Assembly: GCA_963769885.1 (NCBI GenBank)
Contig: CAVYNH010000005.1
Span: forward strand, 119,144 to 183,143
Direction of reading: 5' to 3'
DNA from: Methanobacteriota archaeon
GTDB taxonomy: Archaea; Thermoplasmatota; E2; DHVEG-1
Length of the DNA stretch: 64,000 nt
Shown: piece after piece, positions 28,605-54,160 of the stretch
Position numbering within the stretch: the stretch's first letter is position 1
Layout of the letters: the number at the start of each line of letters is the position of its first letter
Made by a program: the position numbers and the translations under genes
The notes under the pieces: generated by a model
What the model was told of the DNA's origin: nothing
Database searches by the model: none
The model's input: only the letters and a program-made list of their open reading frames with translations

Positions 28605-30317
28605 TTGAAGCTGACCCTGAAGGTTCTCATCGGCAACCTCTTGTTCATTGCGGTCTTTTTCCTCATCATTGCGAGGATTTTTTCCGTCGTCTCTGGCGCC
28701 GTGTTCCCGGTCGATATTGTGACCTCGGATTCCATGAGTCCGTCGCTGATAACGGGGGATCTGGTCACCTGGTCGCCCGCGTCCATTCAGGACGTTAAGG
28801 TCGGGGATATCGTCGTCTATAAGAGCTGGCTGCACTGGCCTGACACGAAGTTCATCGTGCACCGCGTCATCGAGGTCCGCGAGGACTTCGGCAAGATCGC
28901 GCTGGTCACCAAGGGAGACGCGAACCGGTGGACCGACCAGGCTGGGCCGCATGCGCCCGAGCCGTACGTGACCGAGAAGAACTTCGTCGGTAAGGCGATC
29001 ATGCTCGGCCCTGTGCCCTTGAAGATCCCGTTGGTCGGCTACGTTGGCATCCTGGTCAACGAAGGTTTCCGATTGTTGACGCAGTCCTCGGCGGCGAAAG
29101 GGACCTCGACGACGATCTGGGTCTTCACGCCCCTGACCGTGTCCGTCATCCTCCTGGTCATCGCCATCTTCCTGGTCCCTGAACGCCGGAAGACCATCCA
29201 AGAGAAAATCAGGTACTACATCCTGAGTTCACGGTCCTTGAACCTGAAGAAAACCGCCGTGTTCTTCTTCCTCCTGTTCACCGCCTTCTTCTTCATCATC
29301 CATCTGTTCGCGTATGATACGGTGACGGGGGCGGTCGGCGTCGGCGAATTCGCCTCAAAGAATGGCATGGACCTTGGGGCACTGGAGCCGGGGCAGACCG
29401 GGTTCCCTCGGGAGATCTCCGTTGTCAATCCTAGCGTTTTCCCTGTCAAAGGCATTATCTTCGGGAGGCAAGGCATGGAGCCGCTCCTCAATCACGTCGT
29501 CTTCACGGTGGGAGCAGGTAAGATCAAGCCACAGAACATCTCCGCCTCCGTCCCAAACGGGACCGCGAACGGCTCGTACGTCGGCGACATCGCCATCTAC
29601 TCCTCCCCTCTCTGGCTGCTCTTCCCAGACGAGGTCCTACTCACGGTGTCGCAAGCAGACCCCAGCCTCGTGGTTATTATTCTGGATCTCATCAGTGCCG
29701 CGATCCTCACGGCGGTCACACTCCTGATCATCCTTGCCGCTGCCCTACTCGAGGAGACGGCCTACGTTCTCCAGGTCAATCTCTCCTGGCACTATGCCCC
29801 ACGGCCGATGCTGAAAACCCGATGGAGAGCGCGGATTGCCCATGCGCGCCTCCGATTTCGCCGCGGACTGGCGAGGAACGTCCTCTGGGTAAGCCAGGTA
29901 AACCTCGCGTCGCTGCAGGCGCGGCCGTTCCTGATCGGCGGCCTCATCGCCGTCCCCTTCTTCTTCCTCATGCAAAGCACGCTTACAGCTTTGGTGGTCG
30001 CCGCGGTCCTCGCCGGGCTGGTCGCCTACCTCTTTCGCTGCCGGCTGCGGGAAAAGATCGTCCTTGCGGTCGTCATGTCCCTGTGTGTCTCCCTGTGTCT
30101 GCTCATGGGCAAGATCGGCTTCGACATCCTCACCGCCTCCCGCTCGGTCATAGAGACCCTCGGGCTGGTCATGGGCGCGCTCGGGATTTATCTGCTCGTC
30201 GTCGCGTTCCTGCTCGTTCCTGTGGTCCTGACGTCGTGGGGGCTAACGCACCTCTGCCGAAATGTTAAAGAACAGCGTGACCCATTACTGGCCCTGGAGG
30301 GTGGATGCGACCTCTAA
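28605..30317 (+). CDS. signal peptidase I (S26) fused to a long multi-TM C-terminal region
   Basis: SDSMSP (Ser), GDIVVY, IVHRV (His), TKGDAN in the first ~160 aa, then ~400 extra aa. Confidence 0.82.
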   Translation: MKLTLKVLIGNLLFIAVFFLIIARIFSVVSGAVFPVDIVTSDSMSPSLITGDLVTWSPASIQDVKVGDIVVYKSWLHWPDTKFIVHRVIEVREDFGKIALVTKGDANRWTDQAGPHAPEPYVTEKNFVGKAIMLGPVPLKIPLVGYVGILVNEGFRLLTQSSAAKGTSTTIWVFTPLTVSVILLVIAIFLVPERRKTIQEKIRYYILSSRSLNLKKTAVFFFLLFTAFFFIIHLFAYDTVTGAVGVGEFASKNGMDLGALEPGQTGFPREISVVNPSVFPVKGIIFGRQGMEPLLNHVVFTVGAGKIKPQNISASVPNGTANGSYVGDIAIYSSPLWLLFPDEVLLTVSQADPSLVVIILDLISAAILTAVTLLIILAAALLEETAYVLQVNLSWHYAPRPMLKTRWRARIAHARLRFRRGLARNVLWVSQVNLASLQARPFLIGGLIAVPFFFLMQSTLTALVVAAVLAGLVAYLFRCRLREKIVLAVVMSLCVSLCLLMGKIGFDILTASRSVIETLGLVMGALGIYLLVVAFLLVPVVLTSWGLTHLCRNVKEQRDPLLALEGGCDL

Positions 30318-30338
30318 CGGTGAGGGTGATGCAGTAAA

Positions 30339-31361
30339 ATGCCTCTTTTAAAGCGAAAGACTGTCCCCGCATCGCCCGTCTCATCCGACTCGCCTGCACT
30401 CTCGAATCAGTTGTCTCGATTTCAGCGTCGAAAGCCCTCCGCGACCCCGCAGGAGCCGCAGACGCCCAACGAGACGACCTCGTCTGATGCCTACTCATTC
30501 CTTGACTCCGAGCAGCCTGACCAGAACGCCTTTGAGGACCTCGGAGACCTACCAACGACCACGGCGCCGAAGCGGCCGGCCTACTGGCAGAAGGAGATGG
30601 CCGGCAAACCCGTGTTCCTCGAAGACACCGGGGAGCGGCTCGGCGAGGTCGCGGACCCCATCCTCGACGCGGAACAGCACCTCATCGGCTACCGGATCAA
30701 GGACAACAAGTCCGACGCCGTCCTCAGATTCCCCCTCGAGCAGTTCGACGAAGACAAGAACGGCCTCATCTTCGTCCCCAGCTGGTACAGCAAAGGTGTC
30801 AAGACCGTGGAGAAGCTGGAGTTCAAAGACCGTATCACCCCGGAGCTCATGTGGCTGATCACGGACAACACCGTCCCGATGCAGGACCTGTACCGCGTCT
30901 TCGTCCGCCATGACGATACTATCACAGGGTACTTGGAGGAGGCCGGTAGCCTCCGCGAACTGCTCACCCAGCGCCTCCGGATTCTGGAAAAAGAGCGGCT
31001 GTCGCTCAAAGAAAGCCTCATGGACCTCACCGAGAAACGCCTCATCAAGGACATCGACCGCAGGGAGTTCTCCGACATCATCATCGAGCACCGCCGCAAG
31101 GTCAACGTCCTCGATAACAACATGAAGAAATGCAGCGACCTGCTCGCCCGTCTCCAAAAAACGTCCTTCGGCATGCTCAGCCTCGCACTCCACGCCGCCA
31201 CCGCACCCTCACCAGGTCCTCACACGGACCGCGACCCGACCACAGACCAGGCCTACCAAGAGAAATACAACCAGCTCAAACAACAGTACGCCAAACTGCA
31301 CGAGGGCTACGAAGAACTGAAGACCGCCGTGGAACGCCTCCTGACCAGCACCGACGTCTAA
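30339..31361 (+). CDS. PRC-barrel plus coiled-coil protein
   Basis: MAGKPVFLEDTGERLGEVAD.......IGYRI PRC pattern followed by heptad helices. Confidence 0.7.
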   Translation: MPLLKRKTVPASPVSSDSPALSNQLSRFQRRKPSATPQEPQTPNETTSSDAYSFLDSEQPDQNAFEDLGDLPTTTAPKRPAYWQKEMAGKPVFLEDTGERLGEVADPILDAEQHLIGYRIKDNKSDAVLRFPLEQFDEDKNGLIFVPSWYSKGVKTVEKLEFKDRITPELMWLITDNTVPMQDLYRVFVRHDDTITGYLEEAGSLRELLTQRLRILEKERLSLKESLMDLTEKRLIKDIDRREFSDIIIEHRRKVNVLDNNMKKCSDLLARLQKTSFGMLSLALHAATAPSPGPHTDRDPTTDQAYQEKYNQLKQQYAKLHEGYEELKTAVERLLTSTDV

Positions 31362-31454
31362 TCCCCAGTCCATTTCCAAAAGGTAATAAGCAAAGAACCG
31401 CATTTCCTTTAAGTAGACAACACCGAGTGGGATACCCTGGGGTGAGGAAGAATC

Positions 31455-34400
31455 ATGTCGGACGATTTTCATACAGAAGCCAAGGAAAAACCGACCACCG
31501 GCCAGGACACCGCGCACTTCATCCTCAACAGCCGTGGCGAACTCCTCGACGCCAGCGACGCCTTCTGCCGCCTGGCCGGCAGACGCCGCGATGCCCTCAT
31601 CGGCACCACCCTGGAAGACGCTGGACTTCTCACCGACATCTCCGCCAAGGCGCTCCGCCGCCGCCACGTCTCTGTTCTCATCGGCAAAGCACCTCACACC
31701 TACACCCTCGAAGTCCGCGCCAAAGACGGCGGCATCTCCCTCCTCCACATCGACTCCATCCCCTACCTCAAAGACGGCAGACTCATCGGCGAGCTCGCCA
31801 CCGTCCACAGCATCACCCCCCAACCCCCATCCACCGACCAACCACTCACGACCATGACGACTGAGCCGCGCCCAGGCACCGACCCCACCGCGATCCTCCA
31901 AGACCGCCTCGAAGACCAACACCACAAACTCCACCAGACCCAACAGAAACTCCGCAAGGCACTTCTCGACCTCGAAACCAAGACCTCACACATCCAAGGG
32001 CTCCAAGACGAGCTCGACGACACCGAACAGCAGCTCCGCCAACGCCTCCACGACCTCGACGACGCCACCAAACAACTCAGACAACGCCAATTCCTCCTCG
32101 ACCAAAAAGATCAAGAACTCACCCGCCTCCGCGACGACCTCACCGCCGAGACCAGCCAACACCAAACCAAGAACATGGAACTTGAACACCTCAACGCCAG
32201 GCTTCAAGACGCCCTCACCACCGCCGAAAACCTCGGCGAAGACCTCACAGAGGCCCAGCGACTCCTCCTCCAGAAGACCCATGACGCCGACCAAAAGGCC
32301 GCCGAGATCAAAAACCTCACCGGCCTCCTCGAGGACACCCGTCAGACCCTCGCCGCCCTCCAAGCCGAGCAAGAAGGCATCATCGAAACAAACCAGGCGC
32401 TCACCAGCCAACTGACTCAAACTCGGCAGGACGCCGAGACCACCGCTGACACGCTCCGGCAGACCCAACAGCAGCTCCAAACCAAAGACCAAGACCTCGC
32501 CGCCGTCCAGGCCGCGCTCCACGCTAAAACCCAAGCACTCGCCGAGCAAACCATCCACTTCACCGAACTCCAAGAAGCCGTCCGAAGCCTCCAGGAGACC
32601 ATCGCCGAACTCCGTCAAGCCCACACCGACAACGAAACCGCCCTCGCCGGCCTCACCCAACGCCTCACCGAAAAAGACCAAGTCCTCCAACAAGCAGCCC
32701 AGGACCTCGACCGCACCCACGCCGAAACCCACACCCTCCTCGGCAAACTCGACAGCAGAGAAAAATACATCAGCTACCAAAACAACCAGCTTGACCGCTA
32801 CGTCCACCAACAAAACATACTCACACAACAACTCAACGACCTCACTGCAGCCCTAGAAAAACAGACCGCGGACCACCACGCCACTGTCCTCGCCCTCGAC
32901 CACAGCCACGATGAAACCGATCTTCGCACCGCCGAGATCCGCCGACTGTCCCGCCTCCTCGCCGACGCCCGACGCCACGCCGACGCCATCACCATCGATC
33001 TCGCCGACACCAAGACCCACGCCCTCGAAACCACGGCACAGCTCCAAGACCGACTCACCGAACTCCACGCCCTCCAAACACAGCACCACGACCAGGAGGA
33101 CGCCATCACCCGCCTCCGAAGTCAGATCACCGAACGGAACACCATCATCCAACAACTCACCGACCAGGTTGAAAACCTTCACCAGGCCGCGGCAGCCGCC
33201 GCCCACGACCACGACAGCCTCGCCACCGCCCTCACCGACACGAAAGACGAGACCAACCGCCTCCAGGACGCCCTCACCCAAAAAGAAGGCGACCTCCGAG
33301 ACAAAGACGCTGAAATCACCGACCTGCGGACAGCGCTGCGGACCGCAGAACACCACCTCAAGACCATTACCCAGACCGCCACCTGCCTTGAACAAGAACT
33401 CCAGAAAAAAGACGCAGTCCTCGAACAAAAAACCGACCTCATCAACACCCTCCAATCCGACCTCGAAGACCAACACCGAGACCTCCAAGAACACCTTCGC
33501 CATGCAACCCACCTCCACACTGAGTTCACCGATACCCAACACCTCCTCGCCGACCTCCAAAAAGAGATAGCCGAAACCACCGCCGTCAGCGCACTCCTCC
33601 AAGAGCAACTCACCGCCACAACTGAGGACCGTGACCACCACGCCCAACTCCTCACTCAGACTACCCAAGACCTCCAAACCCGAACCCACCTCCTCGACAC
33701 ACAGACTGAGGAACTCACCCGCCTCAAGGCCGACCTCGCCAAATACACCCAAGACCTCGACCACAGCCATCAACGCATCATCGAACTCGAAACCGAGCTT
33801 GAAGAAAAAACGACGGCCCTCGACGACACCACCCGACTCCTCACCCAAGCCACACAAGAAGCCCAGGCACGCACCCAAGAGGTCAGCGAACTCACCGCCG
33901 GCCTCAACGCCCGCAACCGCGAACTCGACCAACAACTCCAACTCATCGCCACCTTCAAACAAGAATCATTCGATAACCACCTCAGCCTCACCGGACTCAA
34001 CGAAGAACTCGCCGCCCGCCAGCACGAGCTCCAAACACAGACCGCAGCCCTCACCCAACTCCAAGAAACACTCACCGCACTCCAGAAAGACAACGCAGAC
34101 CACACCGCCCTCATCGCCATCCTCAAAACCGAACAAGCCACCAAACAAGCCCTCCTCGAACAACAGACCGAGGCCCTCACCAGACAACGCCACGAGCTCA
34201 CCCACCTCCACGACAACCTCGACGCTCAAAAACACCTCCGAGAAGAAACAGACCAAAGACTCCACGAGACCCTCACCCAACTCCAAACCCACAAAGACCA
34301 CATCTCCAAACTCTCCACTGAGCTTCTCGCCAAAAACCAACAACTCCAAACCATCGAACAGACCCTCCAGCAGCACCAACACGACCTCCAAGAAAAAACA

Positions 34401-37400
34401 CAGCTCATCCAACACACCCACCACCAACTCGCAGACCTCGAAAAAGAACTCCACAGCCACCACCAAGAAATCAACGACCTCCACCACTCCCTTGACGAAC
34501 GCAACCAAATCATCGCCGACCTCACCGGCCAACTCACCGACACCCAAAGCAGCCTGCTCCAAGAGGCCAAGGCCGCCGACACTCTCAACGACAACCTCAC
34601 CAACACCAGAACCCTCCTCACCCAGACCCAAGCAGAGCTGGAAACTAGCCACCACCAGCTTCACCAGGCCAAGAGCGACTGTGAACGCCTCACCGAACAG
34701 CACACCGCCCTCACCGCCGAACTCCAACGAATCACCACAGAGCTCGCCGCGCAACACCTGGCATCCCAAAAACAAAAAACCGAACTCAAAGACCTTCAAA
34801 CCGAGATCCACACCCGAGACTTCCTGATCTCCGACCTCACTCATCAACTCACCAAAGAACAGACCACAATCACCCAAAAAACCCAAGAAAACCAGACGTT
34901 AACCGAGGAGCTCGCCCGCACATCCGAACTCCTCCTCCAAGGTCAAGAATCCCTCACCGCCAAACAAAATGAACTAACAGAGGCCACGCAGACACTCGAC
35001 GAGCTCACCACCACCATCCAATCACTTAAAGAAGAGATAGAAACCCGGGACATCATCATCAGCGACCTCACCCAACAGGCCAGTGAAGAACAATCAAAAC
35101 TCGTCACCACCGCAACCCAGATCGAAGACCTCACCAGAGAACTTACCGAAACCCAAGACAGGCTACACGGCAGCCAAACCGCAGGCCTTGCACAGGAAGC
35201 CGAGCTCACCCGACTTAAGGAAGAACTCCACGACCGCCTCCAGGACCTCGCCTACCGCAACAACGATCTCAACGACCATAAGGCTCGAATCAACCAGCTC
35301 AGCACACAAATCGAGACCCAAGCCCAGGCCCTCCAGCAGGATCAAGCAGAACTCGCACGCCTGAACCAACTCAACCGCCAACAAGCTCTCGACCTCAAAC
35401 AGGCGCGCGAGGAGACTGAAAAACAATGGATGGAATTAGTCCTCAAGAACATCGACATCCAGGATAAAAGCGAACTTATCACCGAACTCAACGAAAAAAT
35501 CACCCAAGACCAACAGATCATCACTATAGCAGAGAGCGACTTCCAGACCAAGACCACGCATCTCTCAAGCCAAATCCAGGACCTCCAGAGTACACTGCAA
35601 AACACCCGGACCATGCTCGAACAATCCACCGACGAAATCCAAAGCCTCAACCAAGAGATCATCGGAAAGGACCGGCTCCTCCAAGACCTCAGCCGACAAC
35701 TCAGCGACGAACAGACCTCCCTCATCGAGACTGTCTCAAAAAAACACCAGCTCGAATCGGAAGTCGAGGTACAACGACAGCACAATGAGACGCTGCAGGG
35801 AACGCTCCGTGACAAAGAACAACACCTCCACCAAATCGAGGAGGCTCTCAAGTCCAGCGAGCTTCAACTCACGGACCTACAACGGGAACTCACGGGTAAA
35901 ACTCGAGACCTCGAGATCGCCACAACCGAGTTGACCGCCAGGGAGGACCATCTCGAGAAACTGCAAGCCTCCCATACTTCACTTCTCCAAGATGACGAGA
36001 GACTGAAAAAGCAACTCGAGGACCTCACACTGGAGAAGCAGAACCTGCGATCATTGCTCGACAGCATCGAACAAGGAAGCGCCTCCTCCATCATCATGAC
36101 CGATGCCAAAGGCATCATCACCTCGTGGAACCCGCGCGCCGAGCAGCTGTTCAACATGCCCGTCACCTCCGCAATCGGACGACAGCTTACAGACCTTCCA
36201 TTCCTCAAAGACGCCCTCTCAAATACCGTGAACATCCTCACAAAGACCTCTGAACATTCGATCATCATCAAGAACCAGCGGAACGAGGAGCTCCTCACGG
36301 ATATCTCACGGATTCCTCTGCTCAACGACGTCGGAGAAGGTTATGGGTCTCTCATCATCATCGATGATGTTACACCGATGGCTGGGTTGCATGCAGAACT
36401 CTGTAAAAACAAGGCGGATCTTGAGGCGCTCAGCAATCGCTATCAACAATCCTTCAGAAAAATGGCGATTGCCGAGAAGGAGCTACAGGAGAACGAAACC
36501 GAGTTGCGTGTTAAAAAGCAGGCTCTTGCTGAACAAGCCCAGGAGATTTCGGGGCTTCAGAAGGAACTCGAGCGTCATTTTGAGGTGGTGAAAACCAAGA
36601 ATTCGCAGTTGGAGCAAGTGGTTAGAACCCTTCAAGAACGAGACTCGGAACTCGATGAGTTGCGTCAGAAGACCACCAATGGCCAAGACGAGCTCCTGCA
36701 TGCCAAGAACCTTATTGCGAATCTGGAAAACGAGCATCATCGAACGGTCGATGAGCTGCATGATGTTTCGACAAAGTTGAAGGAAGCACAAAAGGAAATC
36801 ATAAGATCCGAGGATCTATGCCAGAGGTTCCAGGCGCACCTCCTCAAGCAACAATGCGAGGTGAGCCAAAAGGAGCTTGAGATTAAGACCCTGGGGGATA
36901 GCGCTGAGAATCGGACGAGGGAACTGGAGATTGTCACGAAGCGGCTTGAGGACAGCACGCTGCAGCTGTCGGCCTCTACAATCAGGATTGAGAGAGCGGA
37001 GAAGGATTTGAAGAAACGAGAGGAGGAAGCATTGCTTCTCCGCCAGCAGGTAAAAGAAAGGCAGACCGTACTTCTCAGGGTCACTGATGAGAGAGACAAC
37101 ATCGTGCAACAATGTGAAACCCTGAAGACCGACCTTGTTTCTGCTCGGAAGGACATGGAGGAGCTCTCGAGTGAATTAAAGGCGAATAAGGCATCGGTGC
37201 TTTGGTTCAAGACGGAACTTGAGGGGACGAAGGAAACCTTGCGGCTCAAGGAGAACGATGTGCATGTGAGACTTGCAGAAGCGGAGGATCTGCGAAAACA
37301 AATCGGTGAGCTTAAGATTGCTCTTCTTGAAAGGAACCATGACGTAGAACACGTACGGGAGGAGGTCGAGGGCCGGCAACAGCAGATAGGCATCCAGGAG

Positions 37401-38441: not shown

Positions 38442-39053
38442 TTAAGGGTAGAGGGTGACGAGGCTGTTGGTGGTGTAGGGGACGTCGAAGGTGAAGGTTT
38501 GTTGTTGTCCGGGGGTGGGGGTGATGGTGAGTTGGAGGGTGTCGTAGGGTCGTAGGTAGGTTTGTTCTGGGAGTTTGACGAGGAGGAAGCCGGCGTCTGT
38601 GTTTTTGTTGAGGGTGTGAGCGGCGAGGGCGGAGCCGTCGTCGTCCGTGATCATTTGGATGGTGAATGACCCAGGTTTGAATTGGTCCCAGGCGGGGTTG
38701 TGGAAGAGGGCATTGGTGGGCTCGTCTTTGGGGACGTCTCGGTAGGGGAGGATGAAGGCGTCGTCGGGGAGGGTGAGTTGGAGTTGTATTTTGGTGAGGT
38801 CGATGGTGCCGGTGATGAGGGGGCGGATGTGGATGGCGAGGCGTTGGATGCCGTTTGGGGTGTCGTATTTGCCGATGATTTGGTCGATTTTGAGGTAGGT
38901 GGTGAGGTCGTTGGTGATGTCGGTGACGGCTTGGTCGAGGGCGTTGTTGGCAGTGGTTTGGTTCTTGATGAAGATGGAGCCGGCGGTGGCGCCGATGGCG
39001 ATGACGGAGGTGATGAGGACGATGGGGAGGAGGCCGAGGGTTGCGTCTGACAT
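38442..39053 (-). CDS. divergent archaellin-like protein
   Basis: Hydrophobic N-helix; LAIHIRP...IDL and I.DDDGS...LN match the neighbouring archaellins; lacks the GIG motif. Confidence 0.7.
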   Translation of the reverse strand: MSDATLGLLPIVLITSVIAIGATAGSIFIKNQTTANNALDQAVTDITNDLTTYLKIDQIIGKYDTPNGIQRLAIHIRPLITGTIDLTKIQLQLTLPDDAFILPYRDVPKDEPTNALFHNPAWDQFKPGSFTIQMITDDDGSALAAHTLNKNTDAGFLLVKLPEQTYLRPYDTLQLTITPTPGQQQTFTFDVPYTTNSLVTLYP

Positions 39054-43641: not shown

Positions 43642-43676
43642 GAAATACCTTATACAGAGTGAGGAGAGAGCCAGGA

Positions 43677-44492
43677 ATGGTTGAAGCAACAGAAAACCAA
43701 AACGCTGAGCAGCCTCTCGACGAGACCGCACTTCAAACAGAGCTTGCTGTTCTCGTCGAACGCAATCAGCTCCCTCAACGAATCGCCCAGAGGATTAGCG
43801 AGAAGTTAAAGAAGAACCATCTCGCCCTCACCCGTGAACAACTCTCCCTTCTCGTCGAACGCATCCAAACCGCGCTCCGCTCTCTTCAACAACCTCATGA
43901 CGTCGAAGACGAAAAAAACCAAGTTAAGACCAAGCCAAACCAGATCCCTGCCGCTGAAGACATGAAACATCTCTACGACGAGGTCGCCGACCTCAAAGAC
44001 CGCCTCCAAGTCATTGAACTCAACTCCCTCGAAGGAATCCGAGGGACAGCCGGACGACTCGTGAAAACACGGGAGATTCAGAATCAATCCCACATCGAAG
44101 TAGGGCAGGACGCCCTCCAGTCTCTTGAGGCAATTCCCAACGACCCAGAAAGCATCGTCATCGTCATGAAATGGCTCTCCTTCATGGTCGAACGAATCGG
44201 GAAGCACGGCCTCCCTGACGTCCTCGGGTACTACGTAGACATTGGATGGATCTCCGACGACGTTCGCCTTGACTTGATAAACTATTCCAAGGGCATTATC
44301 GAGGACCTGAGCCACTCAGACAACCAGAGGGAGACCGCTTATCTTCCGACGAAAGACCACCTCCAGTCGCTCCTCTTCATCCAGAAACTCAAAGGAATTC
44401 ATCTCGACGAACGATTCCTCAACAGGATTGACAGAGAAATGGAGAAGATGACCAAGAGCCTGGAAAACACGCCAACCAAACCCCCACTTTAA
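43677..44492 (+). CDS. flaD: archaellum protein ArlD/E
   Basis: WLSFMVER.G...LGYYVDIGWIS...DHLQSLLFIQKL. Confidence 0.88.
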   Translation: MVEATENQNAEQPLDETALQTELAVLVERNQLPQRIAQRISEKLKKNHLALTREQLSLLVERIQTALRSLQQPHDVEDEKNQVKTKPNQIPAAEDMKHLYDEVADLKDRLQVIELNSLEGIRGTAGRLVKTREIQNQSHIEVGQDALQSLEAIPNDPESIVIVMKWLSFMVERIGKHGLPDVLGYYVDIGWISDDVRLDLINYSKGIIEDLSHSDNQRETAYLPTKDHLQSLLFIQKLKGIHLDERFLNRIDREMEKMTKSLENTPTKPPL

Positions 44493-44581: not shown

Positions 44582-45007
44582 ATGGGATTCTCACTGATAG
44601 CATCAGCCGTGGTTCTCAGCATTGCCATCGCGATGGCTATCGAGATCTTCACGGGAGACATCTTTCCGACAATTGATCGCATCAACACAGCCTATGAAGG
44701 CCTTAAAGGACGAATCGATACCCAGGCTCATGCTAATATCAATATCACCTCGATTTCCCGCGTATCCTATGGGTTGAACTACAACTATACTATCACAGTT
44801 CACAATACTGGTAGTGTGACGCTGCCGACAGCGACTGCAACAATCCTGTTCAACGGAACCAAAGAACCGTTCAACGCCTCTGCACCTTACCTCTATCCTG
44901 ACGCAACCGTGACATTCTCTATTATCGGAATACCAGATATGAGTGGGAAACGAGTCAAAGTGATAACAGAAAACGCAATCGCCGACTATCGCACATTTAC
45001 TCCTTGA
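44582..45007 (+). CDS. flaF: archaellum stator protein ArlF
   Basis: MGFS plus TM helix, V.NTGS..L, LYP, RVKVITEN; gene order. Confidence 0.8.
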   Translation: MGFSLIASAVVLSIAIAMAIEIFTGDIFPTIDRINTAYEGLKGRIDTQAHANINITSISRVSYGLNYNYTITVHNTGSVTLPTATATILFNGTKEPFNASAPYLYPDATVTFSIIGIPDMSGKRVKVITENAIADYRTFTP

Positions 45008-45019: not shown

Positions 45020-45460
45020 ATGGGATTTAGCCTAACAGGAGCACATGTCATCTTTTTCATCGCTGCTGTTATCGCCGCAGGCGCTGTTTCAGGAATTCTT
45101 ATCGCAGTAACCACAAACATCAGCTCAAGCCTCTCCGAGCGAGGCAGCCGCGTTGTCGAACAGCTAGACACGGAGTTCGCTGTAATAAACGATCCAAACA
45201 CCATCCCTATCCAGGGTGACTACTACGTATTCTATCTTAAAAATATCGGGGCAAAAAAATTTGAGACCACAAACGACACCTTCACGGTGTTCATCGACGG
45301 CAATATCCTCACAAAACAGGACTTCTATTTCACTAATTCGACCCTCTCCCCAGACGCCGTCACGGAACTCTACGCACACACTACACTCTCTACCGGAGAT
45401 CACACCCTTCGTATCGTCGGCCTCCTCGCCACCGAGGATGAATTCCACTTTCAAATCTGA
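45020..45460 (+). CDS. flaG: archaellum stator protein ArlG
   Basis: HVIFFIAAVIAAG, INDP, YLKNIG, VFIDG; gene order. Confidence 0.85.
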   Translation: MGFSLTGAHVIFFIAAVIAAGAVSGILIAVTTNISSSLSERGSRVVEQLDTEFAVINDPNTIPIQGDYYVFYLKNIGAKKFETTNDTFTVFIDGNILTKQDFYFTNSTLSPDAVTELYAHTTLSTGDHTLRIVGLLATEDEFHFQI

Positions 45461-45471: not shown

Positions 45472-46185
45472 ATGCAAGGCTTTAAATCAATCATCCTTGA
45501 ACGAAAAGGAGAAAACGACGGGTTTGCAGACCGATTCGGAAAGATCATCCCAGACGGATCACTCATCTTCATCGAAGGAAAAGAAGGCACTGGGAAAAGC
45601 ATCTTCTGCCAGCGATTCTGCTTCAGCCTCCTGAAAAACGAAAACACCTGTTCCTACGTCTCCACCCAATTCACGATCAAAAGCTTCCTCCGCCAAACCG
45701 CATCCGTTGGCTACGATGTCCGAAAATATCTCATGACCGGGAAATTCTTCTTCATCTCCACCGAAGTCACCCTCGCTGAAACCCTCCCACGACAGACATT
45801 CCTGGAAGGACTAATCACCTGCCGCAAGCTTTTCGAGCCAGACATCATCTTCATCGATTCCCTCTCCACCCTCCTCAAAGACAGCCTTAACTCCCAAAAT
45901 CTCACGGAATTGACCAGTTTCTTCAATCGTCTTACCGGCTCAGGGAAAATCATCTTTTGCACTGCAAACCCGCTCGAATGGACTGAAGAAATTCACAACA
46001 CCTTCCGGATGATTACCAACATTCATTTTCGAACATCTCGAGAAACTGCTCCAGGGATCGGGATTGTATACAACATCTATTTAGAGAAGTTCAACGGGGC
46101 TCGCTTTAAGTACGAGCCAGTAACTCGATTCTCCGTCCGCCCGGGAGTCGGACTGACCATTGAATCCAGTGGCGTCGCATTCTAG
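45472..46185 (+). CDS. flaH: archaellum KaiC-like ATP-binding protein ArlH
   Basis: G..GTGKS..CQRF, IDSLS, F.VRPGVGL.IE. Confidence 0.9.
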   Translation: MQGFKSIILERKGENDGFADRFGKIIPDGSLIFIEGKEGTGKSIFCQRFCFSLLKNENTCSYVSTQFTIKSFLRQTASVGYDVRKYLMTGKFFFISTEVTLAETLPRQTFLEGLITCRKLFEPDIIFIDSLSTLLKDSLNSQNLTELTSFFNRLTGSGKIIFCTANPLEWTEEIHNTFRMITNIHFRTSRETAPGIGIVYNIYLEKFNGARFKYEPVTRFSVRPGVGLTIESSGVAF

Positions 46186-46211: not shown

Positions 46212-47831
46212 ATGGACCCAACTGAAGAAAAAAAAATTATCATGGAAAACCCCCACCTCCAACGATACCTGGAGGAAGTGCAGCAGAAGATGGGGCGACC
46301 TGAGTTCTATAGCAAACTCCCACGAGACCTCCGCGACCAAAAATATCCAAATGTTGTCTATCCTACAAAAGGTTCCGTGTTTATCCACATCTTCCGCACC
46401 AAGGATATGGAAGGTAAAGAATACCATGCCATTGAACCCCTACTCAGCGAAGCACAAAAAATGAAACGAGACCAGATTCTCGAAATAATCTACGAGAAAG
46501 CACCCTTCCACGATCCTGTAAAAACCGATAACGAAGTCAAACAAGCCATCAAAAACCTACTCAATGAAATCACCATTTCTGACGAGCACGCATCACCCAC
46601 TGATAAAATCAAGCACGGAAAGATCCATGTGACGCATGCAGAAAAAATGGCGATCGAATACGACATCACGAAAAATATCATCGGCGGGGGACCTCTCGAG
46701 CCGTTCATGAGAGATCCATATCTAGAAGATATCCACATTATCACCGGGGAAAACGTCCATCTCATCCACAAGGTCTTTGAAATGATCAAGACCAACATCC
46801 ATATCGACCAGGCTTGGGCGAGCACATTTTCCCAAGAGTTCAGTGAAAAAATCGGCAGCCCCGTTAGCGAAGGTCAGCCGATTGCAGACGGAACCCTACC
46901 AGACGGAAGCCGCGTCAATATCATCCATAGCAAGGACGTCAGCTTGAAAGGTCCGACCATGACGATCCGTAAGTTCAGCGAGACCCCGATCAGCGTCACG
47001 CAGCTCATAAACTGGGGGACGTTCGATATCGGCGTCGGAGCATACCTCTGGCTCTGCCTCCAATATGGACGGAGTCTCTTCGTCTGCGGAGAGACTGCAT
47101 CGGGGAAAACTACGACCGCGAATGCTATTATCCCTTTCATCCCTCCAGAAAAAAAGATTTTTTCTGTAGAAAACACCCCGGAAGTCCAAGTTCCGCATGC
47201 GGTCTGGCAGCAGCTCCTGACTAAATCGACGGGGCCAAAGGAAGGCCATATCGAGCTTGAGGATCTTCTCCGTGCGGGACTACGATCGAGACCTGATTAC
47301 ATCATTCCGGGAGAGACCAGAGGCATTGAGGGCCGTGTCGTGTTCCAAGCAATGCAAACAGGTCATCCAGTGATTACGACGTTTCATGCGGGGAGCGTGA
47401 CCAAAGTCATCCAACGATTCACGGGTCATCCTATTAACATCCCGAAGCCGTTCATGGACAACCTCGACATCGTCCTTATCCAGATGGCGGTCGAACGCAA
47501 AGGGAAACGAATTCGCCGCGTGCTCTCGGTGGACGAAATCGAGGGGTACAACAAGGAAGTCGACGGGATCATGTCTCGAAAAGCTTTTGAGTGGAACCCT
47601 GTCGACGACACACATGTCTTCAAGGCGAACCGGAACAGTTACATCCTAGAGTCCCGCATCGCGAAGATGGCAGGCCTCACGGATCCGATGATGATTTATG
47701 AAGAATATGATAAACGCAAGCATATACTCGAGCGTATGATTCAGGAGAAAATTTTTGATTATTACGAAGTAGTCCAGTTCATCTGGACGTATTATCGAGA
47801 AGGGGAAAAGGGATTGCCGATTTCTATATAG
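46212..47831 (+). CDS. flaI: archaellum ATPase ArlI (copy 1)
   Basis: NPHL..Y, YP....FIHI, GETASGKTT, LRSRPDYII.GE.RG, FQAMQTGH..TTFHA. Confidence 0.93.
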   Translation: MDPTEEKKIIMENPHLQRYLEEVQQKMGRPEFYSKLPRDLRDQKYPNVVYPTKGSVFIHIFRTKDMEGKEYHAIEPLLSEAQKMKRDQILEIIYEKAPFHDPVKTDNEVKQAIKNLLNEITISDEHASPTDKIKHGKIHVTHAEKMAIEYDITKNIIGGGPLEPFMRDPYLEDIHIITGENVHLIHKVFEMIKTNIHIDQAWASTFSQEFSEKIGSPVSEGQPIADGTLPDGSRVNIIHSKDVSLKGPTMTIRKFSETPISVTQLINWGTFDIGVGAYLWLCLQYGRSLFVCGETASGKTTTANAIIPFIPPEKKIFSVENTPEVQVPHAVWQQLLTKSTGPKEGHIELEDLLRAGLRSRPDYIIPGETRGIEGRVVFQAMQTGHPVITTFHAGSVTKVIQRFTGHPINIPKPFMDNLDIVLIQMAVERKGKRIRRVLSVDEIEGYNKEVDGIMSRKAFEWNPVDDTHVFKANRNSYILESRIAKMAGLTDPMMIYEEYDKRKHILERMIQEKIFDYYEVVQFIWTYYREGEKGLPISI

Positions 47832-47857: not shown

Positions 47858-49489
47858 ATGTCTCCAGAGAATCAGCAGCAACTTATCAAGGATAATCCTC
47901 ACCTCCAAACATATCTCGATAGTATCAAGGATACAATTGGGGAACCTGTGTTTTATAACCAAGTACCGCGTGAAGTACGCGATGAACTCTATCCGAACTT
48001 CGTCTATCCGACCAAAGGTGTTGTCTTTATCCATATCTATCGGACCCAGGATATGGACGAACCAGAATACCATGTTGTCGAACCAAACCTCGATGATAAT
48101 ACCTCGGCAAAAAAGGATTTTATTCTGAAAAAAATCATCCAGAAAGCGCCGACGAAAAAAAGCGTTATTTCGGACAACGAACTCCGAGACGTACTCAAAG
48201 AAATTATTGACGAAAGCAGCGTCCTTGACGAATATGCCATAAGCGTAGTGAAACAAAAAAAAGGTAAGCTCCCTGAAAAAGTACGAATGACGAGTTATCA
48301 AAAGGACGTCATTCAGTACTACATCATTAAGAACATCGTCGGCGGCGGTCCACTTGAGGCATTCATGCGAGATCCTTACCTTGAGGACATCCATTTCGTC
48401 GCAGGAAAAAAAATCCATCTTTTCCATAAGATTTATGGAATGATCAAAACCAATATCGTTGTAAATGAGAAGGAAGCGCCGATTCTCACCCGCGCAATTA
48501 GCGAGAAAATGGGAGCTCCGGTCAGTGAAGGTCGACCGATTGTCGACGGTGTCCTCCCAGACGGTAGTCGCGGGAATATCATCTACAGTTCCGCAGTCAG
48601 CATTAAAGGGCCAAGCATGACCATCAGACGTTTTACAGAGACACCCATTAGCATCACTCAACTCATCAAATGGGGAACATTGAATGCCAGCGTTGCTGCC
48701 TATCTATGGTTGTGCCTGCAATACGGGAGAAGCTTTTTCCTCTGCGGTGGTACTGCTTGCGGGAAAACCACGACGATGAACGCAATTATACCCTTTATCC
48801 CTCCTGAAAAAAAGATCTATACCGCGGAGGGTACGCCTGAACTCCAAGTCCCTCATACGGTCTGGCAGCGGCTTCTGACGAAAACTACAGGGCCAAAGGA
48901 AGGCCAAGTGGATCTTTTCGATTTATTGAAGGCTGCATTGCGGTCACGGCCCGACTATATTATCCCTGGCGAGGTCCGTGGTGCGGAAGGAAACATCGTA
49001 TTCCAGGCGATGCAAACTGGGCATCCTTGCATGACAACGTTTCATGCAGGAAGCGTAACCCAGGTCATTCAGCGGTTCACCGGCGATCCCATTAACGTTC
49101 CGAAGACATTCATGGACAACCTTGATTTTGTACTTATCCAACTGGCTATTGAGCGCGGTGGGAAGCTCATCCGACGGTTGACCTCTCTGGATGAAATCGA
49201 GGGATACAACCGGGAAGTAGATGGAATTATGGCACGCACCGCCTTCACCTGGAAGGCCGATGAAGATATTCATCAATTCAAAGCGAACCGTAATAGTTTC
49301 ATTCTTGAGGAAAAGATAGCCAAGAATGCGGGATATGCTGATAAGACGGAGATTTACACAGAGCATGAACGGCGCAAACACATCCTGGAACGAATGGTCG
49401 AGGAAGATATTATGGATTATTACGAGGTAGTGCAGTGCGTTTGGGGTTTCTATCGAGAAGGCGAAAAGGGACTGCCCATAACCGTATAG
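47858..49489 (+). CDS. flaI: archaellum ATPase ArlI (copy 2)
   Basis: Full-length paralog with GGTACGKTT, LRSRPDYIIPGEVRG, FQAMQTGH. Confidence 0.92.
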   Translation: MSPENQQQLIKDNPHLQTYLDSIKDTIGEPVFYNQVPREVRDELYPNFVYPTKGVVFIHIYRTQDMDEPEYHVVEPNLDDNTSAKKDFILKKIIQKAPTKKSVISDNELRDVLKEIIDESSVLDEYAISVVKQKKGKLPEKVRMTSYQKDVIQYYIIKNIVGGGPLEAFMRDPYLEDIHFVAGKKIHLFHKIYGMIKTNIVVNEKEAPILTRAISEKMGAPVSEGRPIVDGVLPDGSRGNIIYSSAVSIKGPSMTIRRFTETPISITQLIKWGTLNASVAAYLWLCLQYGRSFFLCGGTACGKTTTMNAIIPFIPPEKKIYTAEGTPELQVPHTVWQRLLTKTTGPKEGQVDLFDLLKAALRSRPDYIIPGEVRGAEGNIVFQAMQTGHPCMTTFHAGSVTQVIQRFTGDPINVPKTFMDNLDFVLIQLAIERGGKLIRRLTSLDEIEGYNREVDGIMARTAFTWKADEDIHQFKANRNSFILEEKIAKNAGYADKTEIYTEHERRKHILERMVEEDIMDYYEVVQCVWGFYREGEKGLPITV

Positions 49490-49498: not shown

Positions 49499-51274
49499 AT
49501 GACAACTGAAGAAAAAGAACAGGAAAAGACAGCCCGAAAGCAGGAGAGGAAAATAAAGAAAGATTCGTTGAAGACCCTGAAATATTCCTACCGGACGCTT
49601 GAGAATCGAGGGAAGTACGTTCGATCCGTGCTCCTCCCCTGCATCCTGCTAGGAGCCCTTGTCATGGGCATGCCGTTTGTCCTGCGCCTTCTGGTTTCAA
49701 GCACGCTTGAGTTCAATACTACGATATTCATCCTTGGCGGGATTATCCCTGTTCTCTTAGGTGTTTTGTACCCTTACATCTCTTGGAAGAACAAAGAGTC
49801 GTCTATCAACGGGAAGATGCATTTCTTCATCACCCATCTTAGGGTCCTAGCTATCTCCGATCTTTCGTTAAAGGATATTATCAACGTCATCGGGGGAAAC
49901 AAAGCGTACAAGAGTCTTGGAGAAGAACTGCGTAAGATCAGCGTCCTATCTGATCAATGGCGCATGCCGCTCTCGAAGAGCTTCCGGTTCATCTCAGAGC
50001 GGACTCCAAGTAAGATCTTCCGGGATTTCTTGGACCGGTTCTCGCAAAGCCTTGACAGCGGTGTTGAACATCGGGAATTCATCGAGACTGAACAGAGCGC
50101 GGTGCTTGAAGAATACAAGACCATGTACGAGGCGAGCAACAACAATATCACGATTCTCAGTGAAATCTACGTCAGCCTCTTGATTGCCATCATCTTCGTC
50201 ATGTCTTTAGGCATCGTCCTCCCCATGATTATGGGTTCGAAGGATATGAACTCCTTTATCTTTCTCGCCTCGTTCATGCTCATCGCCTCCGAAGGCCTCC
50301 TCCTCTACTTGCTTCGTGCGATGATCCCGCCCGACGAGATGTGGCATTGCACAGGAGAAAAAGGTAATATCGAACGCTCGCTATATCGGTTGTTTAAACT
50401 TTCCTTAGGGATGGTCTTTGGGCTAGGATTCTTTTTCTTCCTTTCAAAGACCATACTTGGGCTGTTCCCATTCACCATAATTCCCTATGAATTGCTTGTG
50501 GCACTCGCCGTAACCCCACTCATCCTCCCAGGAATAATAGTATTGAGAGAAGAGGACCGCATGATGCGTAAAGAGAGGAATTTTTTAGGGTTTCTCCCAG
50601 CACTTGGTTCTATCTCAACCATGCGAGGCGGCCGTATTAATGATTCCGTGTATTATTTGAGCGAAAAGGATTATGGTGTGCTCACGGGCCACATCCGGGA
50701 TTTATATCGCCGGCTTCGTACCCGCATTGACGACGATGCCTCATGGGAATGGTTTGGGGTCGATACAGGTAGCAACTACATTCAACGGTCCTGCGAAATG
50801 TTCCGACAGTCAACGGCTGCTGCCGCGAACCCTCGGACGGTTTCCCGGATGATCACCGAGAATATCCGAAAGATTCGGGACCTCCGGGTTAAAAAGATGG
50901 CGATCGTGAAGACATCCGCGGCCCTTTTGGCAGGCATTACCTTCGGAATAACGTTTGCCATTTACTGCTCGTTGGTCGTCGCCCGGCATTTGAATACGAT
51001 TCTTGCGGCGGGTACGGCCGGGAATCCATTTGAAGGGACCACGATTGATATTGGAACGATATTAACCACGGTCCCCCCTCAGGTTTTTACAAATAACTTT
51101 ATCCTCATCTTTACAGTGCTTCTCATCCACTGCATCCTTATGTCCATTACAATCCGTTCACTACGAGGAAGCCACATTATCGTCTCCTGCTACTATTTCG
51201 TCGTCTTTACTTGGATTGTGTCCGTGACCGCCGTCCTTGTTGATTTCACCTTACGCGGGTATCTTGGTATCTAG
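49499..51274 (+). CDS. flaJ: archaellum membrane platform protein ArlJ
   Basis: Multi-TM T2SSF-type protein; TPSK.F.DFLDRF..SLDSG, W..F..DTGS. Confidence 0.9.
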   Translation: MTTEEKEQEKTARKQERKIKKDSLKTLKYSYRTLENRGKYVRSVLLPCILLGALVMGMPFVLRLLVSSTLEFNTTIFILGGIIPVLLGVLYPYISWKNKESSINGKMHFFITHLRVLAISDLSLKDIINVIGGNKAYKSLGEELRKISVLSDQWRMPLSKSFRFISERTPSKIFRDFLDRFSQSLDSGVEHREFIETEQSAVLEEYKTMYEASNNNITILSEIYVSLLIAIIFVMSLGIVLPMIMGSKDMNSFIFLASFMLIASEGLLLYLLRAMIPPDEMWHCTGEKGNIERSLYRLFKLSLGMVFGLGFFFFLSKTILGLFPFTIIPYELLVALAVTPLILPGIIVLREEDRMMRKERNFLGFLPALGSISTMRGGRINDSVYYLSEKDYGVLTGHIRDLYRRLRTRIDDDASWEWFGVDTGSNYIQRSCEMFRQSTAAAANPRTVSRMITENIRKIRDLRVKKMAIVKTSAALLAGITFGITFAIYCSLVVARHLNTILAAGTAGNPFEGTTIDIGTILTTVPPQVFTNNFILIFTVLLIHCILMSITIRSLRGSHIIVSCYYFVVFTWIVSVTAVLVDFTLRGYLGI

Positions 51275-51298: not shown

Positions 51299-51968
51299 TT
51301 AAGGTTGTAGGTCGAGAATCGAGTCTATGAGGCTACTTGGAGTCGTAAAATCAATAAGGCCAGGGGTCCCGTATTCGCTGTAAATACTCCCGGAGACTTC
51401 AACGCGACTACCAAGGCCGCTTGTGAAACATTTGGAGGTATTTACCAGGAGGACGGCGAGGTCCTGACCATTGAGGATTGGGGTCTGCTGTAGGCACGAC
51501 CCATCCGTATCACGGATGACCATAAGCCCGAAGGTCGTAGCATTCAGTTGACTTGCATTCAGCGTCCCAAATAAGCCGTTGGAGGAGCTTCCACTGTAGC
51601 AGGCATTATCATATTTAAGAAGGACTTTTGAGGACGTGTCAGAAAGGGCGATGACCACCGTTGATAAATCAACGGGTTCAGAGGCCGTCGTGGTCTGCAG
51701 GAATATAGCTAATTGCGTTATTTTTGTTCCATTGGAAAACCCGCTGATATGGGTTACCTTTATCCCTGAGGATACCTCGCGGAGCGTTTCCTGACCGGTT
51801 TTCAACGCCTGCTGTTGAAGGGTGTTCATGGTCTGCATGAGAACAGAGGCGGCGATTCCGGCGGCGAGAATTAGGGCAATAAAAATTATGAGAGATCCGA
51901 CTCCCATCTCAGCGGATGAATAGCTTCTTTGGCTTCTTCGAATGATGGTAAACAGTTTTTACCCCCAT
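51299..51968 (-). CDS. flaB: archaellin (leader start uncertain: CTG at 51955, or ATG at 51968 with a +1 frameshift)
   Basis: RRSQRSYSSA|[24 protein letters not shown]; IRDTDGS; FTTP. Confidence 0.82.
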
Positions 51969-52057
51969 CCCGGTGAAGGATAACTAGTAAACCCCTCCAC
52001 ACCCATGGGATGAATCCTGTATGGGGATAAAAAAGTAATGGCTGAACGAAGTGAAGG

Positions 52058-52099: not shown

Positions 52100-52113
52100 G
52101 GTATTTTACAGGC

Positions 52114-52797
52114 TTAGTAGAGATCGAATATTGTTCCGGCCAGCGAAGACGGAGTCCTGATGGCGAAAATCCCTGGAGCTCCTTGTTCTGGGATAATCAT
52201 TCCCCAGATATCTTCTGAGGGACCCCATCCACCAAAGGATTTACCTGGGCATATGGTGATAAGGACGTGGTCTCCTCTGTTGATGACCGGACTGGCCGTA
52301 GAGTCGGCTGATCCATCTACATCCTTTAAGACCATGACTCCAAACGAGGTCGCGCCTTGACCAAAGGCTGATACTGAGTCGTCAAAGATACCTGCGCCCC
52401 CGATACCGGTGTAGTTGAAGAAAAAGGAGCTGTTATACTTCATCACGATCTTAGTGACAGAATCACTGACTTCAACGGTTGTTTTACTCAAATCGATATC
52501 CTTTGAGCCTGCTCTCGGTGAGACAGAAATGGTTACGTTGAGTATCTTATCAGTGATTGCTCCGCCGCCATAATCGTACGTTCCTTTCGCAGCACAAATA
52601 TCGTCAACGCCTATTCCCGTGGCGACTTCATTAGTAGTCTCTGCGCCTGTCGCCATAGCCTGATTCTCTAATTTGTTTGCGGTTTGTACCAAGACCGAGG
52701 CTGCAATCCCAGCAACAAGGACCATGGCAATGAACACAATCATTGCCCCGATTCCCATGTCCCCTGCCTTGCTCCTTACAAATCTCATGTGTCTCAT
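52114..52797 (-). CDS. flaB: archaellin
   Basis: KAG|[33 protein letters not shown]. Confidence 0.93.
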
Positions 52798-52813
52798 TTT
52801 TCATCCTCCTCAG
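52672..52813. repeat. 142-bp exact direct repeat, copy A (archaellin RBS and 5' end)
   Basis: Identical to 53353-53494 by manual alignment. Confidence 0.9.
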
Positions 52814-53478
52814 TACAAATCATAGACAGTATCCGAAAGCGAGGAAGGAACCCGGAATGCAAAAATCCCTGGTGCTCCGATTTCCGGAATGACTTGTCCC
52901 ATGATGTCGTCACGAGGGTCAAGACCTGTGGTAAAGCATGCACTGGTGCTAATCTTCAGCATGACGATATCTCCTGTGTTGATGACGGGCGAAGATGCAG
53001 AACTCATCGAGCTATCGGCATCATTCAGAACAATGATACCAAACTCGTCGTTGGTGAGCGTCCAATTTCCAGTTCCAAAGACACTCCCAGTAGTATCATC
53101 GACTGCAGTGCTGTAATCGTCCGTGTCAGTTGCATCGTAGTGGAGGAGCACCTTCGTGTCGCCGTCGGTTAATTCGATGATCGTTTGATTTAGGTCAATG
53201 GCTCCTGATCCCGATCTGGTTTTTATTGTAATAGTCAGGTTAACAATCGTATGTGAGGTGGTGTTTGTCTTTCCTCCAATATCAAACACGCCAAGGCCTG
53301 ATGCGACTTCTTTTGTCGTCTGTTGCCCTGTTATCATTGCTCGAATCTCTAGTTTGTTTGCGGTTTGTACCAAGACCGAGGCTGCAATCCCAGCAACAAG
53401 GACCATGGCAATGAACACAATCATTGCCCCGATTCCCATGTCCCCTGCCTTGCTCCTTACAAATCTCATGTGTCTCAT
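52810..53478 (-). CDS. flaB: archaellin
   Basis: Same N-terminus as 52114-52797; GGAGG RBS. Confidence 0.93.
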   Translation of the reverse strand: MRHMRFVRSKAGDMGIGAMIVFIAMVLVAGIAASVLVQTANKLEIRAMITGQQTTKEVASGLGVFDIGGKTNTTSHTIVNLTITIKTRSGSGAIDLNQTIIELTDGDTKVLLHYDATDTDDYSTAVDDTTGSVFGTGNWTLTNDEFGIIVLNDADSSMSSASSPVINTGDIVMLKISTSACFTTGLDPRDDIMGQVIPEIGAPGIFAFRVPSSLSDTVYDLY

Positions 53479-53494
53479 TTTTCATCCTCCTCAG
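53353..53494. repeat. 142-bp exact direct repeat, copy B
   Basis: Identical to 52672-52813. Confidence 0.9.
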
Positions 53495-54160
53495 GTACAA
53501 ACCAAAAACCGTGCCTCCAGCAAAGGAAGCCGGCGTGGTAAAGGCAAAAGCACCAGCTGAGCCTTCTTCCGGTTGGACAAGCCCCCACACATCTACCCGA
53601 ACATCGAGCCCGGCTCCGAAGCATTGGGTTGCATCGAACGTCAAAGCAACCTTATCCCCAAGGTTTGCAACAGGCGTTGTGTTCGTCACCGATCCATCGG
53701 CGTCCTCCAGGACCATGACCCCAAAATCTTTGGCGCCTAGTGTGTAGGCAGTGCCGGCAGGGTTGAACATATCTCCGCCGACTTGGCTTCTCGTTGTATA
53801 ACCCCCGGCGTAGGTTAAGACGCATTTCTGCACTGAGTTCGAAATCTCTATGTAGGCGTTCGACAGATCAATGTCCCCAGCGCCTGCTCGGGGTTCCACG
53901 GTAATGTAGCCGAGGTCAAGTGTGGTTCCGCTCTTATGCCCAGCGATACTGGAGACTTTTAACCCTGTGGCTACCTGGTTAATGGTCTGATCTCCCGTCG
54001 TCATCGCTTGTATTTCCAGCTTGTTGGCCGTCTGTACGAGGACGGACGCAGCGATACCGGCGACAAGGACCATGGCGATGAACACAATCATGGCGCCAAT
54101 TCCCATGTCAGCGATATCGCTTTTTTTCAGAAGTTGCTTTATTTTTCCCATCTGGCACAC
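53491..54160 (-). CDS. flaB: archaellin (natural stop put out of frame by one extra base at 53494/53495)
   Basis: KKSDIA|[13 protein letters not shown]; ends ...GLY-c-TGA where the neighbouring paralog has DLY-TGA in the same context. Confidence 0.88.

Follow-up and report, generated by a model that had tools for sequence, protein, structure and literature searches.

Does an archaellum in a genome devoid of chemotaxis genes take its instructions from PAS domain proteins encoded beside its motor? The question is raised by a 64,000-nucleotide stretch of DNA from an uncultured member of the Thermoplasmatota found in sediment (here called the window; contig C5:119144-183143 of G000, a 2.09-Mb assembly of 7 contigs with a completeness of 92.4%), in which two genes for PAS/coiled-coil proteins stand among the genes of an archaellum cluster. 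An earlier note on this DNA, made from the sequence alone, had proposed that these proteins couple redox or ligand sensing directly to the motor or polar cap and so form a Che-independent control system. The gene block that it described is real: gene calls made from a listing of open reading frames (ORFs) together with Pfam and NCBIfam scans return arlC, arlD/E, arlF, arlG, arlH, two arlI genes, arlJ, archaellins, and the PAS/coiled-coil genes. What these genes form is a variant of a known machine, and its extra genes work beside the usual chemotaxis genes in relatives, not in their place.

The core families and their usual order are those of the euryarchaeal operon arlB-arlC-D/E-F-G-H-I-J of Pyrococcus furiosus, Methanococcus maripaludis, and the Thermoplasmatales archaeon O. 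meridianum (PMC12448462, PMC8978795). To this operon the cluster adds a second ArlI, an Sm-fold archaellin leader, an extra archaellin-like gene, a 440-aa PAS protein (PAS440), and, in part of the family, a gene for a giant PAS protein. Mapping by tblastn over 20-odd loci from genera of f1 and f2, two families of uncultured Thermoplasmatota with the extended cluster, identifies it as an order-specific, extended form of the euryarchaeal archaellum cluster in these two families. In our literature search, no paper turned up that treats PAS genes in arl clusters, tandem arlI, or Sm-fold archaellin leaders; in a paper on Thermoprofundales, fla genes are merely listed. The Lutacidiplasmatales were ruled out as the lineage concerned, that group being reported to be without archaella. 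Points left unresolved for the archaellum include where ArlC/D/E sits and in what stoichiometry, what the polar cap is made of, and how one ATPase serves both assembly and rotation (PMC8978795), and the lineage provides natural variants that bear on how the motor is built, anchored, and controlled from the cytoplasm.

Chemotaxis genes in the genome and its relatives

A profile search of the whole G000 genome found no CheF, CheW, methyl-accepting chemotaxis protein (MCP), or CheA (PF04283, PF01584, PF00015, and PF02895), and the same profiles matched in control genomes. The lack of che genes that the earlier note had seen in the window thus extends to the whole genome for these four proteins. 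When the ten Che proteins of G001, the only other congeneric species compared, were searched against G000 by tblastn, generic receiver/HATPase similarity alone was found; a lone CheY is indistinguishable from generic receivers and is not excludable in G000, because single receivers are generic.

The che island of G001 is complete, with CheR, CheD, three CheC proteins, CheA, CheB, CheF, CheW, and MCP. Its flanks are syntenic with G000 contig C4:299035-307523 and 309639-312986, and the gap between them is ~2 kb in G000 and ~28 kb in G001. Since the flanks are contiguous in G000, the absence of che genes is a true structural difference rather than a gap in the assembly. The genome-wide search that the earlier note had called for therefore ends with no che set in G000 and with the che site of the congener contiguous and empty. 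The sequence at the empty site (C4:307881-309371; L058:1382-2872, minus strand) encodes a receiver-PAS-DUF835 protein of 496 aa with a weak winged-helix match in its tail. A receiver match there was considered as a CheY remnant and rejected, because it belongs to this protein.

CheW/CheA was found in 16 of 67 family genomes, spread over nine genera, and CheW is lacking in most. In several che-positive genomes (e.g., G076, G061, and G158), the che genes are on the same contig as the arl cluster. CheA of G001 is 58 to 70% identical to CheA of eight other family genera and 29 to 37% identical to that of f7/f9, which suggests vertical descent with repeated loss of che. With this level of identity across nine genera, Che therefore looks ancestral in the family and lost in G000. 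Because the family che island has been lost there, any swimming control in G000 would run through Che-independent inputs or be absent.

PAS440 is retained where Che is present. A PAS440 orthologue lies inside the arl cluster in G001 and in all of the other che-positive genomes tested (5/5), such that Che and PAS440 occur together in G001, G041, G049, G061, G076, and G158. In f6, CheW was found in none of 32 genomes, and the archaellate f6 genomes also have no PAS440. Both observations speak against the PAS proteins as a Che-independent substitute, the role that the earlier note had given them. PAS440 is instead a lineage marker of the archaellum of this order, independent of Che status.

Absence of Che also bears on the switch proteins. 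As in the ArlCDE-CheF-CheY switch of Haloferax volcanii (PMC7534055), ArlC and ArlD/E are conserved here, and G001 and other relatives have Che proteins; unlike H. volcanii, G000 has no CheF, CheW, CheA, or MCP. G000 is without Che yet keeps conserved ArlC and ArlD/E, and their role in this genome is therefore not Che coupling. Their strong conservation in che-less genomes argues for a structural role beyond CheF docking. ArlC/D/E is thus retained without any Che system, and the occurrence of a che-positive and a che-negative species in one genus makes a direct comparison possible. In practice, such tests would have to be heterologous or in situ, since all members are uncultured metagenome-assembled genomes (MAGs).

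PAS440 and the other accessory genes

PAS440 (window 41224-42546, minus strand; PAS_9) is a PAS-coil-PAS protein whose gene diverges from arlC (42742-43641, plus strand; FlaC_arch, PF05377, E = 2.6e-10). Between the two lies an AT-rich divergent intergenic region (42547-42741), in which TATA-like stretches towards both genes can be read from the sequence, and which we infer to be a candidate divergent promoter region. The phyletic pattern of PAS440 is that of ArlC: 25 of 41 relatives have both and 16 have neither. In every mapped relative cluster of f1 and f2, PAS440 stands beside arlC, on the Sm-archaellin side. The tie between PAS and arl genes that the earlier note had implied is therefore tight for PAS440, and only loose for the giant protein; the synteny and co-occurrence that it proposed to examine in relatives also hold for the Sm-archaellin and the double arlI, both of which are conserved in f1 and f2. 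By its distribution and synteny, PAS440 is best regarded as an undescribed, archaellum-linked protein family and a true companion of the archaellum, a new family with the phyletic pattern of arlC in the relatives searched. About 129 sequence clusters in 5.8 billion proteins belong to the family, all of them unnamed “PAS domain S-box” proteins. PAS440 is absent from the archaellate f6/f9 genomes searched, and the family appears confined to the f1/f2 lineage.

An AF2 model of PAS440, made with 24 homologues, consists of a PAS domain (residues 18 to 117), a disordered segment (123 to 164), helices (165 to 223 and 246 to 323), and a second PAS domain (342 to 437), with both PAS domains and the long helices confidently predicted. 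The C-terminal PAS domain is the most conserved part of the protein and contains the invariant motif EKYYLDRLKG and conserved flanking polar residues. In Foldseek searches, the PAS domains are nearest to those of the DosP/FixL heme sensors, LOV-PAS proteins, and PpsR; a sequence search of PDB with PAS440 gave no sequence-level match to any solved chain. The PAS fold is common to all of these proteins (PDB 9cmf, 8js5, 6ph4, and 4hh2), and the PAS-helix-PAS layout is like that of PpsR and LOV-PAS constructs. PAS440 differs from them in that it has no conserved His/Cys ligand and is without an output domain of the kinase, phosphodiesterase, or DNA-binding kind.

PAS440 and the giant protein were considered as recent paralogues, a relationship that was rejected because their BLASTP similarity is found in the coiled coil alone and not in the PAS domains. 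FrzS and AglZ of Myxococcus, which regulate motility machines, are comparable in layout to the proteins described here in that they join a small signaling-type domain to a long coiled coil and are genetically tied to a motility apparatus. They differ in having a receiver-like domain in the place of PAS, and in organism and machine.

The common gene order in the relatives is peptidase, PRC, and giant genes (where present), orf203, one or more Sm-archaellins, and PAS440; then arlC, D/E, F, G, H, I1, I2, and J; and then one to five copies of arlB. Within ArlC, a core (residues 115 to 186) is nearly invariant over seven genera. The firm accessory core consists of orf203, Sm-archaellin, and PAS440, and the peptidase, PRC, and giant genes are facultative neighbors. 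Where the cluster is split (G008 and G022), one PAS440-type gene is with arlC and another is with the Sm-archaellin. In G003, which is a single contig without arl genes, there is no PAS440, and a truncated giant gene adjoins a pseudogenized Sm-archaellin (L056, G003:C1:360000-379999, positions 8015-13312) with an open frame of only 94 aa. This locus looks like the remnant of a decaying cluster.

The first member of the accessory core, orf203 (38442-39053, minus strand), encodes a divergent archaellin-like protein (NF006325 flagellin, E = 1e-12) that has an N-terminal hydrophobic helix without the GIGTLIVF motif and is kept beside the Sm-archaellin in f1 and f2. Sm-archaellin 1 (39279-40136, plus strand) and its tandem paralogue Sm-archaellin 2 (40325-41179, plus strand) both match Arch_flagellin from residue 81. 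Sm-archaellin 1 begins with an Sm-fold domain (residues 1 to 65), from which a basic linker leads to a class III signal-like site (A|EVGIGTLIVF) and on to the archaellin body. The site in the Sm-archaellins, [A/G]|xVGIGTLIVF, agrees with that of the plain archaellins. Across genera, the N-terminal domain is 75 to 84% identical and the filament body about 50%.

The AF2 model of the Sm domain (pLDDT of 91) has one helix (H3-9) and five strands, and its Foldseek list is dominated by SmAP/LSm proteins (TM of 0.65 to 0.74), with weak E-values of 4e-3 to 2e-2. A Pfam scan of the Sm-archaellins gave no LSM match at an E-value of ≤0.01. The domain is confined to f1 (62/67 genomes) and f2 (4/4), and close relatives of the Sm-archaellins come from MAGs labeled Thermoplasmata/Thermoplasmatota, from lake sediment, soil, and similar sources. 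Stand-alone Sm-domain paralogues of 65 to 100 aa are many, and they are expanded in some relatives (G162, G159, G153, and G151), with up to 13 matches in G162. Since these paralogues persist in non-archaellate genomes too, the domain also exists apart from the archaellum.

The giant protein (2325 aa; 31455-38432, plus strand; Pfam PAS_9/PAS/PAS_4 and translation) has three PAS domains, at about residues 20 to 120, 1545 to 1640, and 2105 to 2217. It is ~80% coiled coil, and its PAS ends alone are conserved. Orthologues of 1000 to 2400 aa are found at the same position in G002, G005, G008, G014, G015, G017, G020, and G023, and nine archaellate genera have a detected copy. A search of f2 found none, and in G004 a 274-aa coiled-coil ORF stands in its place. 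Within the giant gene (window 32001-36000), strand composition is extreme, with a GC skew of about -0.4 and an AT skew of about +0.52.

The two genes upstream of the giant gene encode SPase570 (28605-30317, plus strand) and PRC340 (30339-31361, plus strand). SPase570 is the extended signal peptidase of the earlier note and is confirmed as such: it is an archaeal-type signal peptidase I (TIGR02228, 78 bits against a cut-off of 51.85) with a ~420-aa multi-pass C-terminal extension, which lies outside the TIGR02228 family model. Its translation has a Ser motif, SDSMSP, and numerous hydrophobic spans. The other claimed neighbor, a PRC-barrel protein, is a tentative call, weak for both the barrel and a CdvA-like coiled coil. 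PRC340 matches the PRC barrel (PF05239, 20.1 bits against 21.2; E = 6.6e-4) and the CdvA coil (PF18822, 19.8 bits against 30; E = 8.1e-4) below cut-off in both cases; its orthologues are 50 to 58% identical, and a profile search of PDB with it gave no match. The two genes are always found together, in only about 10 to 11 of the archaellate family genomes searched, and are missing from six other archaellate family genomes and from f2. They are also adjacent in a non-archaellate genome of another family (G039:C9:5623-7868). The pair is a separable two-gene module and, like the giant protein, is loosely linked to the arl genes.

Possible roles of PAS440

The reading that we consider probable is that of an order-specific, extended archaellum with PAS440 as a cytoplasmic accessory subunit or regulator dedicated to it. 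A standard motor (ArlC, ArlD/E, ArlF, ArlG, ArlH, and ArlJ) with plain ArlB filament subunits is joined by extras fixed in the lineage, namely, tandem ArlI, one or two Sm-leader archaellins, the divergent archaellin-like protein, and PAS440 back-to-back with arlC. Gene content, conservation, co-inheritance, and the absence of che are observed and the folds are predicted; on these we base what is proposed for dimerization, docking site, sensing, and an effect on rotation or assembly. PAS440 would most likely dimerize through its coiled coil, and its PAS modules would dock on a cytoplasmic component of the archaellum or modulate it, with the ArlC/D/E-ArlH-ArlI ring and the Sm pro-domain of pre-archaellins as candidate partners. 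It would tune assembly or rotation or contribute to the organization of the motor, and it would act in addition to Che signaling where Che is present.

Several points weigh against such a role. Any physical contact of PAS440 with archaellum components is hypothetical. Neither PAS domain has an invariant His or Cys over 24 homologues (a heme His and the LOV Cys in NCRFL were sought), and any sensing is thus hypothetical. PAS440 is also without an output domain, and its effect could equally be structural. Furthermore, the relatives are not independent of each other, and all genomes are MAGs of uncultured organisms. A complex prediction for ArlC (residues 105 to 299), ArlD/E, and PAS440 with self-built alignments (score of 0.04; mark of 0.32) is not evidence either way.

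How do the alternatives compare with a role of PAS440 as an accessory subunit or regulator? That the PAS/coiled-coil proteins are a self-contained redox or ligand input to ArlC/D/E or the polar cap, in replacement of Che, is unlikely. The absence of che from G000 and of CheW from most family genomes searched, the tie of the PAS gene to arlC, and the heme oxygen sensors (DosP and FixL) among the Foldseek neighbors of its PAS domains fit this idea, but PAS440 is kept in six of six che-positive genomes examined, including the congener with CheF. Che looks ancestral in the family, the che-less archaellate f6 genomes are without PAS440, and neither a heme-ligand His nor a LOV Cys is conserved. We are doubtful that PAS440 is a module for handling Sm-archaellins, one that would bind the Sm pro-domain or the released domain and either gate processing and incorporation or couple assembly to a downstream response. 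The persistence of stand-alone Sm-like paralogues in genomes without PAS440, and of a copy with arlC in split clusters, counts against such a module. For it are the shared range of the Sm-fold domain, orf203, and PAS440 (f1 and f2 alone), the better conservation of the Sm domain relative to the filament body, and the position of PAS440, which always adjoins an Sm-archaellin gene, with a PAS440-like paralogue kept beside the Sm-archaellin in split clusters.

There is a modest chance at best that the PAS/coiled-coil proteins are purely structural, as polar-cap-like or motor-anchoring scaffolds whose PAS domains are interaction modules without signal input. The euryarchaeal polar cap has been described as probably proteinaceous, with its connection to the motor unresolved (PMC8978795); the giant protein is mostly coiled coil with conserved PAS ends, and both PAS proteins lack an output domain as well as any conserved ligand for a cofactor. 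However, many archaellate relatives lack the giant protein or have another in its place, so it is not essential, and the conserved polar residues of the C-terminal PAS domain of PAS440 are about as compatible with a pocket as with a specific interface. Phylogenetic inertia, by which the PAS genes would be unrelated neighbors of the arl cluster, is very improbable. All relatives are of one order and their shared gene order could be partly inherited, but no sampled relative without arlC has the PAS gene, its adjacency outlasts splitting and inversion of the cluster, and genuinely loose neighbors (the peptidase/PRC pair) do show an independent distribution. Quite unlikely, too, is a self-sensing organelle in which a hetero-oligomer of ArlI1 and ArlI2 would split assembly from rotation, each processed Sm-archaellin would shed a small cytoplasmic Sm-like protein that reports filament assembly, and the PAS proteins, with a giant scaffold in some genera, would read a metabolic signal at the motor base. 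If true, it would mean that swimming is controlled without two-component signaling in many members that have lost Che.

Tandem ATPases and the remaining genes of the window

The tandem archaellum ATPases ArlI1 (46212-47831, plus strand) and ArlI2 (47858-49489, plus strand) both exceed the NF058587 cut-off of 550 bits (675 and 659 bits, respectively). They are 62% identical, and the Walker A (GETASGKT in ArlI1 and GGTACGKT in ArlI2), Walker B, and His box motifs are intact in both. In the tree, they form two orthologous clades across f1 and f2 (support of 98 and 96) in a fixed gene order. Parallel tandem pairs are found in f6 and f9, with first and second clades of their own. The pairs would have arisen either by two independent tandem duplications or by one old duplication with later homogenization, as read from a tree whose rooting is on one long branch. 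A single ATPase per operon has been stated for all known archaella (PMC12448462), and the tandem ArlI pair contradicts this generalization. Two secretion-type ATPases likewise stand side by side in one filament operon in the case of bacterial PilB/PilT and of CdiPE1/CdiPE2 of the Cuniculiplasma divulgatum pilus (PMC12448462). ArlI1 and ArlI2, by contrast, are both full ArlI equivalogs and not an extension/retraction pair of different families. With two conserved paralogues, the question of assembly versus rotation is open to biochemistry.

In-frame ArlI1-ArlI2 fusions (open frames of ~1100 aa) were considered and rejected, because a stop lies between the genes in L053 and L054. A long ArlI ORF in L055 was also rejected as a fusion; in that GC-rich genome, the overlap that lengthens it is out of frame.

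The other motor genes are all on the plus strand. ArlD/E (Arch_fla_DE; 43659-44492) matches PF04659 (E = 1.2e-25), and with PF05377 for ArlC, both above cut-off, the cluster has ArlC and ArlD/E instead of ArlX. The ArlF-like stator protein (44582-45007) matches NF052590 (E = 1.1e-12) with 48 bits, below the cut-off of 110, and is conserved in position. ArlG (45020-45460; Arch_flagellin, E = 2.2e-17) is recognized via PF01917 alone, and its position, like that of ArlF, is conserved in all relatives. ArlH (45472-46185), a KaiC-like ATP-binding protein (PF06745, E = 6e-15), has orthologues that are 71 to 77% identical, and those of the platform protein ArlJ (49499-51274; PF00482, T2SSF) are 61 to 69% identical.

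Four plain archaellins follow on the minus strand: ArlB_a (51299-51907; PF01917, E = 1.6e-24), ArlB_b (52114-52797; E = 2.8e-28), ArlB_c (52810-53478; E = 1.3e-30), and ArlB_d (53282-54160; E = 2.7e-27, residues 18 to 206). The Arch_flagellin domain thus occurs in seven ORFs (beginning at 39279, 40325, 45020 [arlG], 51299, 52114, 52810, and 53282), with orf203 as a divergent eighth. PF01917 is found in the six filament-type ORFs and arlG, and the translations show a class III signal-type motif, [A/G]|xxGIG..IVF. The “four orientation blocks” of the earlier note hinge on whether arlG and orf203 are counted. The ArlB_d ORF is without the usual stop and overlaps the start of the following archaellin gene, in a different frame, by ~200 nt (53282-53478), and its Cys/His/Arg-rich tail looks out of frame. 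Loss of a stop codon, a sequencing error, or a genuine overlap may explain this. A gene for an A24 prepilin/pre-archaellin peptidase is outside the cluster, at G000:C5:103160-103510 (PF01478, 34.4 bits against a cut-off of 26.5).

An Rfam scan found no RNA family within the cluster. The flanks of the cluster are unrelated to it, with genes for an M50 peptidase, an SpoU methylase, and ProRS to the left of it and for putative DUF2341/Ig surface proteins to the right. Directly beside the archaellins, at 54459-60021 (minus strand), are ORFs of 940 and 919 aa, the first with DUF2341 and Ig-like domains and the second with no family match; both may encode surface proteins. Farther along in the window are a 5S rRNA gene (60299-60418), an archaeal 23S rRNA gene (60458-63656, minus strand) with a group I catalytic intron at 61469-61682 (RF00028, 77 bits), and a tRNA gene (63812-63883).

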